In this document: positions 1-6,747 of the stretch, piece by piece
Numbering within the stretch: the first letter of the stretch is position 1
Layout of the letters: each line of letters starts with the position of its first letter
From: Escherichia coli
Lineage (GTDB): Bacteria > Pseudomonadota > Gammaproteobacteria > Enterobacterales > Enterobacteriaceae
Strand: one strand, 5' to 3'
NCBI RefSeq assembly: GCF_050320075.1
Contig: NZ_CP190024.1
Length of the DNA stretch: 6,747 nucleotides
Notes under the pieces: model-generated
Databases searched by the model: none
The model's input: the letters and a program-made list of their open reading frames with translations, nothing else
What the model was told of the DNA's origin: nothing
Translations under genes and position numbers: made by a program

Positions 1-927
1 ATGAGCGCCGCGCTTCAATACTTCGACGAAAATTTACCCCACCGTCCCTATCACACGGATGATCTCGCTTTTGGTCTTCGCATCTCCGGCAAAGGGCGTG
101 CGCTTCTTGCGCGGTACATCCAGCAGAACCAGCCTCATGCGCAGTTCTGGCTGGTTTTTGATGTTGACCGCGAGGGGGCAGCGATTGACTGGAGTGACCG
201 GAACGCTCCCGCGCCGAACATCACCGTAAAAAATCCTGTGAACGGTCATGCTCACCTGCTCTACGCGCTCAATATCGCCGTGAGAACCGCGCCGGACAGC
301 TCGGTTAAGGCGCTGAAATACGCCGCTGCGATTGAACGTTCGCTGTGTGAGAAACTTTGTGCTGATGTGAACTACAGCGGACTGATTTGTAAAAATCCGT
401 TCCACCTGGAATGGCAGGTGATGGAGTGGCGAGAGGAAGCCTATACCCTCGGTGAACTGGCTGATTATCTCGATTTGAGTGCCTCAGCGCGCCGTAGCAT
501 CGATAAACGTTACGGGATGGGGCGAAACTGCCACCTGTTCGAAATGACGCGCAAATGGGCTTACAGGGCGATTCGTCAGGGCTGGCCAGCATTCTCACAG
601 TGGCTTGATGCCGTGATTCAGCGTGTCGAAATGTACAACGCATCGCTTCCCGTTCCGCTTTCTCCGGCTGAATGTCGGGCTATTGGCAAGAGCATTGCGA
701 AATACACGCACAGGAACTTCACGCCGGAAACTTTCGCACAGTATGTGGCTGATACGCACACGCCAGAAATTCAGGCTGCACGTGGTCGCAAGGGCGGGAA
801 AATTGGAGGTGCTAAGTCTAAGCGTGGTGCTGTTGCCACATCTGCGCGAACGTTGAAACCGTGGGAGACTCTTGGAATTAGCCGCGCCTGGTATTACCAA
901 CTGAAAAAACGAGGTCTTGTAGAGTAG
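1..927 (+). CDS. rep: ColE2-family plasmid replication initiator Rep (plasmid-specific primase)
   Basis: 308-aa ORF from ATG at 1 to TAG at 925-927. The protein closely resembles, from memory, the Rep proteins of ColE2/ColE3-type plasmids (about 300 aa with a basic C-terminal DNA-binding tail, here ...GRKGGKIGGAKSKRGAVATSARTLKPWETLGISRAWYYQLKKRG). A ColE2-like origin motif follows the stop codon directly. Putative RBS GGAG at 6730-6733 if the molecule is circular. Confidence 0.88.
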   Translation: MSAALQYFDENLPHRPYHTDDLAFGLRISGKGRALLARYIQQNQPHAQFWLVFDVDREGAAIDWSDRNAPAPNITVKNPVNGHAHLLYALNIAVRTAPDSSVKALKYAAAIERSLCEKLCADVNYSGLICKNPFHLEWQVMEWREEAYTLGELADYLDLSASARRSIDKRYGMGRNCHLFEMTRKWAYRAIRQGWPAFSQWLDAVIQRVEMYNASLPVPLSPAECRAIGKSIAKYTHRNFTPETFAQYVADTHTPEIQAARGRKGGKIGGAKSKRGAVATSARTLKPWETLGISRAWYYQLKKRGLVE

Positions 928-4037: not shown

Positions 4038-5786
4038 ATGAGCGGTGGAGATGGACGCGGCCATAACACGGGCGCGCATAGCACAAGTGGTAACATTAAT
4101 GGTGGCCCGACCGGGATTGGTGTAAGTGGTGGTGCTTCTGATGGTTCAGGATGGAGTTCGGAAAATAACCCGTGGGGTGGTGGTTCCGGTAGCGGCATTC
4201 ACTGGGGAGGTGGCTCCGGTCGTGGTAATGGCGGGGGTAATGGCAATTCCGGTGGTGGCTCGGGAACAGGCGGTAATTTGTCAGCAGTAGCTGCGCCAGT
4301 GGCATTTGGTTTTCCGGCGCTTTCCACTCCAGGAGCTGGCGGTCTGGCTGTCAGTATTTCTGCAAGCGAATTATCGGCAGCTATTGCTGGTATTATTGCT
4401 AAATTAAAAAAAGTAAATCTTAAATTCACTCCTTTTGGGGTTGTCTTATCTTCATTAATTCCGTCGGAAATAGCGAAAGATGACCCCAATATGATGTCAA
4501 AGATTGTGACGTCATTACCCGCAGATGATATTACTGAATCACCTGTCAGTTCATTACCTCTCGATAAGGCAACAGTAAACGTAAATGTTCGTGTTGTTGA
4601 TGATGTAAAAGACGAACGACAGAATATTTCGGTTGTTTCAGGTGTTCCGATGAGTGTTCCGGTGGTTGATGCAAAACCTACCGAACGTCCAGGTGTTTTT
4701 ACGGCATCAATTCCAGGTGCACCTGTTCTGAATATTTCAGTTAATAACAGTACGCCAGCAGTACAGACATTAAGCCCAGGTGTTACAAATAATACTGATA
4801 AGGATGTTCGCCCGGCAGGATTTACTCAGGGTGGTAATACCAGGGATGCAGTTATTCGATTCCCGAAGGACAGCGGTCATAATGCCGTATATGTTTCAGT
4901 GAGTGATGTTCTTAGTCCTGACCAGGTAAAACAACGTCAGGATGAAGAAAATCGCCGTCAGCAGGAATGGGATGCTACGCATCCGGTTGAAGCGGCTGAG
5001 CGAAATTATGAACGCGCGCGTGCAGAGCTGAATCAGGCAAATGAAGATGTTGCCAGAAATCAGGAGCGACAGGCTAAAGCTGTTCAGGTTTATAATTCGC
5101 GTAAAAGCGAACTTGATGCAGCGAATAAAACTCTTGCTGATGCAATAGCTGAAATAAAACAATTTAATCGATTTGCCCATGACCCAATGGCTGGCGGTCA
5201 CAGAATGTGGCAAATGGCCGGGCTTAAAGCTCAGCGGGCGCAGACGGATGTAAATAATAAGCAGGCTGCATTTGATGCTGCTGCAAAAGAGAAGTCAGAT
5301 GCTGATGCTGCATTAAGTGCCGCGCAGGAGCGCCGCAAACAGAAGGAAAATAAAGAAAAGGACGCTAAGGATAAATTAGATAAGGAGAGTAAACGGAATA
5401 AGCCAGGGAAGGCGACAGGTAAAGGTAAACCAGTTGGTGATAAATGGCTGGATGATGCAGGTAAAGATTCAGGAGCGCCAATTCCAGATCGCATTGCTGA
5501 TAAGTTGCGTGATAAAGAATTTAAAAACTTCGACGATTTTCGGAGAAAATTCTGGGAAGAAGTGTCGAAAGATCCTGAGTTAAGTAAGCAATTTAATCCA
5601 GGTAATAAAAAACGCTTGAGCCAAGGATTAGCTCCACGGGCTAGGAATAAAGATACTGTCGGTGGGCGTCGCTCATTTGAGCTTCATCACGACAAGCCAA
5701 TCAGTCAGGATGGTGGTGTTTATGATATGGACAACCTCCGTATCACTACGCCGAAACGCCATATTGATATTCACAGAGGTCAGTAA
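4038..5786 (+). CDS. col: E-group DNase colicin (BtuB/Tol-dependent, HNH nuclease C-terminus), most consistent with colicin E8-type
   Basis: 582-aa ORF with RBS GAGGG at 4026-4030. Glycine-rich N-terminal translocation domain containing the TolB box DGSGW (residues 35-39). Central coiled-coil region of the kind that forms the receptor-binding domain. C-terminal HNH/beta-beta-alpha-Me motif [34 protein letters not shown], diagnostic of the DNase colicins E2/E7/E8/E9. Subtype inferred from the adjacent immunity gene. Confidence 0.93.
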
Positions 5787-5788
5787 AA

Positions 5789-6046
5789 ATGGAACTGAAA
5801 AACAGCATTAGTGATTACACTGAAACTGAATTCAAAAAAATTATTGAAGACATCATCAATTGTGAAGGTGATGAAAAAAAACAGGATGATAACCTCGAGC
5901 ATTTTATAAGTGTTACTGAGCATCCTAGTGGTTCTGATCTGATTTATTACCCAGAAGGTAATAATGATGGTAGCCCTGAAGCTGTTATTAAAGAGATTAA
6001 AGAATGGCGAGCTGCTAACGGTAAGTCAGGATTTAAACAGGGCTGA
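5789..6046 (+). CDS. imm: DNase-colicin immunity protein (Im family), Im8-like
   Basis: 85-aa ORF starting 2 nt after the colicin stop, with RBS AGAGG inside the colicin 3' end. Conserved Im-family blocks [12 protein letters not shown]...[13 protein letters not shown]...[17 protein letters not shown]. The variable specificity region ([32 protein letters not shown]) matches my recollection of Im8 rather than Im2, Im7 or Im9. Confidence 0.93.
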
Positions 6047-6090: not shown

Positions 6091-6107
6091 CACAACAAGG
6101 AGTCGTT

Positions 6108-6251
6108 ATGAAAAAAATAACAGGGATTATTTTATTGCTTCTTGCAGTCATTATTCTGGCTGCATGTCAGGCAAACTATATCCGGGATGTTCAGGGCGGG
6201 ACCGTATCTCCGTCATCAACAGCTGAAGTGACCGGATTAGCAACGCAGTAA
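6108..6251 (+). CDS. Colicin release / lysis lipoprotein (bacteriocin release protein)
   Basis: 47-aa ORF absent from the ORF track because of its length. [47 protein letters not shown] has a signal peptide and lipobox (LAAC, lipidated Cys at position 20), typical of colicin lysis proteins. Strong RBS AAGGAG at 6097-6102; last gene of the col-imm-lys operon. Confidence 0.9.
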
Positions 6252-6278
6252 CCCGAAATCCTCTTTGACAAAAACAAA

Positions 6279-6311
6279 GCGTGTCAGGCTGATTCTGATG
6301 CGCTTTTTTTT
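6279..6311 (+). terminator. Rho-independent terminator of the colicin operon
   Basis: Stem GCGTGTCAG (6279-6287) / CTGATGCGC (6295-6303) with a 7-nt loop and two G-U pairs, followed by T8 (6304-6311), just after the lysis gene stop. Confidence 0.75.
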
Positions 6312-6439
6312 GAAATGTCACAAAAGTTCCATGTGGGAGATGGGATCTAAAATCCCTGTGCAGAACCTTCCATCCGGTGGGAGAAAACTTGTCATTTTGA
6401 CCTGTTCGCCATTCGGAACGGTCGAAACCGATCGCGTAT

Positions 6440-6590
6440 CGCTTTCGTGCATAGTTATGCAGCGCCCTAAAAACGATTCTGACGCATTTTTCTGGTTCAG
6501 CCTGGTGTTTCCTTGTCTTTTTGCGTTTTTTGCGTCAGAACGCGTCTGAGAGCGTTTTAAGGGGTACGTACAACAGGAATTATGGTAAAT
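6440..6590. other. cer-like Xer (XerC/XerD) multimer-resolution site with upstream accessory sequences
   Basis: Core at 6563-6590: GGTACGTACAA-CAGGAA-TTATGGTAAAT. The XerD arm is identical, and the XerC arm has one mismatch, to ColE1 cer (GGTGCGTACAA-TTAAGGGA-TTATGGTAAAT) as I recall it. About 110 bp upstream is a palindrome with ARG-box geometry, TGCATAGTTATGCA (6449-6462), plus 9-bp inverted repeats TCTGACGCA (6478-6486) / TGCGTCAGA (6531-6539). Confidence 0.65.
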
Positions 6591-6644
6591 GGATCGGGTT
6601 TGCGGGAAGGATCGACAGGATTTGCCGTTGGGTGTAGTGTAAGC

Positions 6645-6745
6645 GACTGAAAAACAAACGCCCCTGAAATCATGTCCAGATCCGGCAAGATTCAACATGA
6701 AATACAGAGGGCGTGTAGGTCGCATAACCCGGAGAGAATCGTAAC
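6645..6745 (-). ncRNA. Candidate antisense copy-control RNA (RNAI-like) complementary to the rep mRNA leader
   Basis: In ColE2-type plasmids an approximately 115-nt antisense RNA complementary to the rep 5' UTR controls Rep translation. On the minus strand, if the molecule is circular, a promoter-like pair spans the junction: TTGAAG (complement of 13-18), 16-bp spacer, TACGAT (complement of 6738-6743). Downstream, imperfect stem arms (complement of 6705-6713 and 6659-6666) are followed by a T-rich tract, GTTTGTTTTTC. Ends are approximate. Confidence 0.35.
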
Positions 6746-6747
6746 AC

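Follow-up and report, generated by a model that had tools for sequence, protein, structure and literature searches.

The question raised by this locus is whether the DNA just upstream of rep in the window (the whole 6,747-nucleotide stretch of Escherichia coli DNA analyzed here) encodes, on its minus strand, an antisense RNA that controls plasmid copy number. In ColE2-like plasmids, rep is controlled post-transcriptionally by RNAI, to which the rep mRNA is bound through its 5' untranslated region (PMC6856555; PMC5304414). An initial, sequence-only reading had proposed that the window carries such a system and that a plausible promoter for it spans the 6747/1 junction. These two articles, along with the match of the encoded Rep protein to Protein Data Bank (PDB) entry 3VW4 described below, support the proposal that a ColE2-type Rep is controlled by an antisense RNA directed against the rep leader.

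The last 448 bases of the window were 100% identical to three circular plasmids, each of exactly 6747 bp, one of which is pACN001-D of E. coli ACN001 (NC_023325.1; L001 in our sample), in which the 6747/1 junction is contiguous. Plasmids with this identity over the queried region are carried by E. coli ACN001, GZM7, and EM22-18-53. Because of this identity to circular records, the window can be considered the complete circular 6747-bp plasmid pACN001-D, opened at the rep ATG, and the junction is real, continuous DNA across which the proposed minus-strand promoter can indeed be read. The plasmid contains rep (positions 1 to 927, plus strand) and genes for mobilization, a DNase-type colicin, immunity, and lysis. 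The regulated gene, rep, encodes a ColE2-type initiator of 308 amino acids, as indicated by the list of open reading frames (ORFs), the RefSeq record, and the PDB match: Rep residues 174 to 301 matched 3VW4 with an E value of 2.6e-55. This entry, whose molecule name reads just "Rep", we take to be the DNA-binding domain of ColE2-P9 Rep. Two insertions, one of 9 and one of 4 residues, set Rep of the window apart from this domain (Rep 174 to 301, nucleotides about 520 to 903), a difference that resembles the ColE3-type specificity difference. The immunity protein matched the colicin E8 immunity protein (PDB 1GXG) with 185.5 bits, all 85 residues being covered. Since Rep and the immunity protein match 3VW4 and 1GXG, respectively, the plasmid can be placed in the ColE2 family, where it looks like a ColE8 type. 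In RefSeq, the colicin carries the label "colicin-E9", against the match to the colicin E8 immunity protein (window 4038 to 6046). Just past the lysis gene there is a 13-bp terminator-like hairpin followed by a T run (6276 to 6306, plus strand), probably the terminator of the colicin operon, and the sole promoter-like site of the region with 9 of 12 consensus matches (6321 to 6292, minus strand) overlaps this hairpin on the opposite strand.

The predicted RNAI transcript covers positions 6731 to 6650 of the minus strand (about 81 nucleotides [nt]); its 5' end would be G6730 or C6731, and its 3' end would lie in the T tract. The folding energy of this segment was -29.4 kcal/mol (z score, -4.21), and 0 of 200 shuffled sequences folded as well. 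For the reverse complement of 6640 to 6745, which the initial reading had singled out for folding, the corresponding values were -31.8 kcal/mol and -2.71. Two elements were predicted. The first is a small and weak 5' stem-loop of 5 bp (6717 to 6730; GGGUU/GACCU, including two G-U pairs), which has another sequence in relatives (GUGUG/CACAC) and is replaced by a 27-nt GC-rich hairpin in the ColE2-P9 types. The second is a long, interrupted main stem-loop (6659 to 6713, from C6713 to G6659), predicted to be at once the kissing hairpin and the terminator stem; in the leader of the rep mRNA, the complementary sequence forms the target hairpin. The apical hexaloop of the main stem-loop, UUGCCG (6683 to 6688; CGGCAA in the mRNA), is closed by AUC/GAU and is the presumed specificity determinant. 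The GC-rich stem is directly followed by the U tract UUUGUUUUU (6650 to 6658), which corresponds to the tail of an intrinsic terminator and is invariant in all relatives. The T tract ends about 88 nt from the -10 hexamer, within the 80 to 100 nt at which the hairpin and T tract had been anticipated downstream of the promoter.

On the sense strand, we noted a candidate promoter of the rep mRNA, TCGACA-17-TAGTGT (6612 to 6640, plus strand), from which the sequence suggests an mRNA start near 6647; RNAI would therefore be complementary to nearly the whole rep leader. The counterpart in an Edwardsiella ictaluri plasmid reads TCGACA-17-TACTTT, and the conservation of this motif is biased, since it served as the search pattern for metagenome contigs. 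An SD-like GGAGAG (6731 to 6736, plus strand) lies 11 nt upstream of the rep AUG and abuts the end of the region complementary to RNAI.

Sequences similar to the region were found in 1140 PLSDB plasmids, and 915 of 5426 complete E. coli genomes contained a similar leader sequence (221-bp query), truncated remnants counted in. For comparative analysis, we compiled 16 plasmid loci and 120 metagenome contigs with the conserved rep-promoter motif, which provided 28 distinct leader sequences. A 15-mer scan of genome contigs returned essentially chance matches and was too unspecific. RNAalifold, run on a plain MAFFT alignment that included the promoter flank, proposed a long-range helix that was rejected as an artifact, the hairpin being misaligned by one base. 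Ten gap-free sequences and a specified structure served to build a covariance model, R1, to which all copies were realigned. The model search was done at an E value of 1e-6, after a looser search had mixed in weak matches to the opposite strand. The main hairpin of the window matched R1 with 51.4 bits (E value, 1.3e-10). Among 22 distinct sequences, 94.9% of the cells were standard pairs and 8 of the 17 pairs had changed on both sides, values that are somewhat inflated because the alignment was fitted to its own model, although the contrast with slid controls, in which the 3' partner was moved by 1 to 3 columns, was large (32 to 49% paired and at most 3 covarying pairs). In the upper helix, all six pairs covaried. 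The folds, the covariation, and the invariant U tract agree in identifying a stem-loop with an exposed loop and a rho-independent terminator, as is the case for ColE2-type RNAI. The hairpin is present on both strands, so covariation cannot assign the strand under selection.

The minus-strand promoter consists of a -35-like hexamer TTGAAG (18 to 13, within rep codons 5 and 6), a 16-nt spacer, the TG of an extended -10 element (6746 to 6745), and the -10 hexamer TACGAT (6743 to 6738). The extended -10 element as a whole, TGtTACGAT (6738 to 6746), is flanked, on the other strand, by the SD-like GGAGAG and by the rep ATG, and downstream of the -10 hexamer a pyrimidine-rich stretch is followed by the purine G6730. 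This promoter matches the consensus at 8 of 12 positions, which, taken alone, is no better than chance: the plasmid contains 25 sites of this quality against 22 expected from shuffled sequences and, when an extended -10 TG is demanded, 2 against 1.5. A consensus promoter and terminator scan of the region reported neither the antisense promoter nor the RNAI terminator, because of its own thresholds (at least 9 of 12 matches for promoters and a loop of 3 to 8 nt for terminators). According to our sequence comparisons, it is conservation and covariation that raise the candidate feature above chance. A number of observations can be made on this conservation. (i) TTG, TG, TA..AT, and their spacing were invariant among 27 distinct relatives. 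(ii) Within the -10 hexamer, positions 1 and 2 (TA) and 5 and 6 (AT) were invariant, whereas positions 3 and 4 varied (TACGAT, TAGGAT, and TAATAT). (iii) The 16-nt promoter spacing was constant; the stretch from the -10 hexamer to the hairpin varied in sequence and length. (iv) The sequence CATGTG, which spans the complement of the start codon and the extended -10 TG, was invariant in the alignment. (v) The base located 8 nt past the -10 hexamer was a purine in the five variant types read (G, A, G, G, and A). This pattern of invariant and variable positions, which the Edwardsiella ictaluri plasmid also shows, appears to be that expected of a working promoter, with the proviso that the same bases overlap the rep translation initiation region and the first rep codons, so their conservation could reflect the sense strand.

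That overlap is one of several arguments for a purely cis-acting role, in which the hairpin would be a structure of the rep mRNA leader, such as a translation enhancer or stabilizer, no functional antisense RNA would be made, and the promoter- and terminator-like features would be by-products of sense signals. The formation of the structure on both strands and the chance level of the promoter match are also in favor of this explanation, as is the A tract, with which the inferred mRNA would begin. It accounts poorly, however, for an invariant U tract placed directly after a GC-rich stem, for invariant and variable positions that fit a -10 hexamer exactly, and for the TTG of the -35 element being kept in the Edwardsiella plasmid although the hexamer is found there in a different coding context. 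G-U pairs also favor the antisense strand, with 10 cells on the RNAI strand versus 2 on the mRNA strand, a small asymmetry that partly rests on the assumed apical helix and provides a weak hint. Furthermore, RNAI has been described for ColE2 plasmids (PMC6856555; PMC5304414). Taken together, these data make an exclusively cis-acting structure unlikely, and an RNAI gene remains our preferred reading.

Two relatives, L012 and L259, encode Rep proteins that are identical to 3VW4 at residues 175 to 294, and their leader aligns with that of the window; both match model R1 at about 51 bits. In this comparison with ColE2-P9, which had been suggested in the initial reading, the control region of the window proved to be homologous to that of the ColE2-P9-type replicon in the promoter region of rep and the AAAAACAAACGCCCC block as well as in the main hairpin with its U tract and in both hexamers (-10 and -35) of the antisense promoter. 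A 32-nt insertion forming an extra GC-rich stem-loop is present in L012, L206, and L235, and in the ColE2-P9-type leaders the same promoter and terminator landmarks predict an RNA of 114 to 115 nt. Takechi and colleagues are said to have reported in 1994 that ColE2-P9 RNAI is roughly 115 nt long, which matches this prediction. The window, in contrast, lacks the insertion with its second stem-loop, hence the length of about 81 nt. It also differs from the ColE2-P9 type in its upper stem, which is altered by compensatory substitutions, in its hexaloop (UUGCCG, not UUGGCG), and in the Rep insertions mentioned above. Like RNAI of ColE2-P9 and ColE3-CA38, the predicted RNA is encoded opposite the 5' leader of a ColE2-type rep and has its promoter next to the rep start; the element, from the promoter to the terminator (6650 to 6746 plus 13 to 18), adjoins and partly overlaps rep. 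As for ColE2-P9 RNAI, its presumed action is the post-transcriptional repression of Rep. ColE2-related RNAI was studied by the Itoh laboratory from 1988 to 2009.

The comparison of relatives also bears on the possibility that the minus-strand promoter drives a protein-coding mRNA. A 135-amino-acid ORF (6318 to 6725, minus strand) does start just downstream of the promoter, within the RNAI region, and one record (H61) annotates a hypothetical protein under the match. Its expression would, however, need read-through of the terminator, and RefSeq annotates nothing at this site. The stretch from the -10 hexamer to the terminator differs in length among the relatives (segments of 118, 124, 125, 126, 127, 159, and 160 nt); because these length differences are not multiples of three, there is no conserved frame, and the ORF was rejected. 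We assign a negligible probability to this explanation.

We found that the sense-strand leader also resembles the control region of I-complex plasmids (IncI-alpha ColIb-P9, IncB, and IncK). It matched the Rfam family PK-repBA (RF01089) over 6658 to 6747 plus 1 to 34 (plus strand) with 23.8 bits (E value, 0.0089), which does not reach the gathering score of 45. In this alignment, hairpin falls on hairpin, the rep AUG on the leader-peptide AUG of the model, and the SD-like GGAGAG on the AAGGA of the leader-peptide ribosome-binding site. Other E. coli types scored 26.2 to 29.4 bits, and the Edwardsiella ictaluri plasmid, pEI-A07-698-1 (L013, 453 to 566, plus strand), scored 47.9 bits, above the threshold. 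This plasmid has UUGGCG on the mRNA loop, a leader ORF of 16 codons, a downstream CGCCA, and a UUG start of rep, so that a Rep of the ColE2 family is combined here with a layout in the style of the I-complex. Between the two kinds of plasmid, the hairpin tip of 12 nt is exactly inverted, the sense strand reading ATCCGCCAAGAT in the E. coli ColE2 types (window 6680 to 6691) and ATCTTGGCGGAT in Edwardsiella (about 470 to 485), so the UUGGCG loop motif is carried by the antisense RNA in the former and by the mRNA in the latter.

What the window has in common with the I-complex is a hairpin whose GC-based stem is interrupted by an internal loop and whose apical hexaloop belongs to the UUGGCG/CGCCAA type, followed at the same distance by an SD sequence and an AUG. 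In I-complex plasmids such as ColIb-P9, a kissing contact of Inc RNA with the target loop precedes the block of the SD next to it (PMC4705826), a mode of action that the two systems would share. Other features differ. We did not find GGCG or UUGGCG in the mRNA target loop of the window, where the mRNA loop is CGGCAA and UUG(G/C)CG belongs to the antisense strand. Neither a leader-peptide ORF nor a distal CGCC partner was found in the window, the rep AUG taking the place of the leader-peptide AUG, and the two systems differ in their Rep protein family and in their origin as well. The element of the window hence resembles I-complex control in part, yet neither its score, nor its mRNA loop, nor the layout of its leader makes it a member of PK-repBA.

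These similarities are relevant to the idea that Rep translation depends, as in the I-complex, on a pseudoknot, here between UCCGG (6681 to 6685) and CCGGA (6730 to 6734), and that the antisense RNA acts mainly by preventing it. In favor of such a pseudoknot are the PK-repBA match itself, the relative from Edwardsiella that passes the gathering score, and the fact that a 5-bp pairing between the loop and the distal site can be drawn in the window. The window match is below the threshold, however; the GGCG-type motif is on the antisense strand rather than on the mRNA; and there is no leader-peptide ORF, the rep AUG being where the I-complex model puts that of the leader peptide. In addition, the pairing amounts to a palindrome, UCCGGA, which easily arises by chance. 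Loop types and downstream sequences are freely mixed in the natural recombinants L232 and L255, and because of this the loop and the distal site do not covary. The pairing of the loop UCCGG with the SD-proximal CCGGA was rejected on these grounds, and we consider control through a pseudoknot very unlikely, even more so than an exclusively cis-acting structure.

As to the origin of the module, our data are compatible with an evolutionary scenario that we put forward tentatively, at slightly less than even odds. The control module of ColE2 may have arisen from that of the I-complex by reduction: inversion of the tip would have moved the UUGGCG motif from the mRNA to the antisense RNA, the leader peptide and the pseudoknot would have been lost, and rep would have come to start at the former leader-peptide AUG; the Edwardsiella plasmid would then be a surviving intermediate, and the UUGCCG loop of the window would mark, within E. 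coli, a separate specificity group able to live beside UUGGCG plasmids.

We consider it highly probable that this region encodes the RNAI of a replicon belonging to the ColE2 family. The observed anatomy, its conservation and covariation, and the homology to the ColE2-P9-type leader support this assignment, and from the anatomy and the homology we infer that the RNA is transcribed, where exactly it would begin and end, and how it would kiss its target and block translation, in the following manner. A weak sigma-70 promoter facing away from rep would yield an RNA of about 81 nt that ends at the intrinsic terminator, whose hairpin would double as the recognition hairpin. The RNAI hexaloop UUGCCG would kiss the complementary CGGCAA loop that the same hairpin presents in the leader of the rep mRNA, and pairing would then spread along this leader, where the predicted complementarity to RNAI begins near the 5' end and extends to position -17. 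The duplex so formed would end at the SD-like GGAGAG and would block 30S binding and Rep translation, a step proposed by analogy with ColIb-P9 Inc RNA, where kissing is followed by a stable complex on the adjacent SD. More plasmid copies would produce more RNAI, giving a negative feedback on copy number, and the loop and upper stem would define the incompatibility specificity. CopA/CopT of R1 (IncFII) and RNAI/RNAII of ColE1 are alike in that a small antisense RNA measures the plasmid concentration by loop-loop kissing; CopA and ColE1 RNAI are small, unstable, and constitutively made. Unlike the RNAI proposed here, ColE1 RNAI blocks primer maturation, not translation, and CopA acts through a leader peptide. 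A permissive Rfam scan of 1 kb returned no match to ColE1 RNAI (RF00106) or R1 CopA (RF00042) up to an E value of 10.

The hexaloops of the compiled sequences differ. In a tally of this biased sample, about 78 of 126 copies had UUGGCG, 41 had UUGCCG, and 5 had UGGCCG, so the window does not carry the commoner loop. Eight contigs contained two control regions each. Both copies were identical in three of them, probably due to concatemer assembly; another three combined a UUGGCG hairpin with one identical to the UUGCCG hairpin of the window; and in the remaining two the hairpins shared the loop and differed in the upper stem. Single metagenome contigs of 10 to 15 kb with two different ColE2-type control regions (L168, L217, and L142; also L193 and L221) could be cointegrates or co-assembled co-resident plasmids. 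They fit the idea that the hairpin tip defines compatibility, of which they are no test. In I-complex plasmids such as IncK, single changes in the loop alter compatibility.

Some of the matches were incomplete. A recurrent dead remnant was detected at 21 loci (L140, L166, L176, L186, L204, L225, L256, and others). Its identity to the window extends to 6687, where the sequence continues, across a GCA microhomology, at window position 126; this 185-bp deletion removes the RNAI promoter, half of the hairpin, and rep codons 1 to 41. Large conjugative plasmids (large F-type; H74 to H98) match just the first part of the query in hundreds of cases. In the related plasmid L158, matches to the traJ-II RNA of Rfam (163 to 244 and 4082 to 4163, plus strand) were below the threshold (38 versus 40 bits), and a traJ-II-like match of this plasmid is located about 350 nt upstream of the rep promoter. 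No traJ-II match was obtained in the permissive Rfam scan of window positions 6099 to 6747 and onward.

The initial reading had also stated that a linear annotation cannot see the element. It is indeed unannotated, but this equally applies to records in which the region is contiguous. In the two RefSeq-derived records inspected, proteins alone were annotated at the leader region, and in the Rfam scan of the region matches to other families were below the threshold and no ColE2 RNAI family turned up. Since the element is unannotated in contiguous records and the scan returned no RNAI family, the annotation gap is most likely due to the lack of a curated model rather than to the linear cut.

The RNAI family has long been known, and the element described here is an unannotated member of it. 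The link to PK-repBA is a modest point on the evolution of plasmid control modules. The practical value lies in annotation and typing rather than in discovery: with a covariance model such as R1, pipelines could mark RNAI and read its loop and upper stem, features that, by analogy with I-complex plasmids, probably predict which ColE2-like plasmids can coexist.
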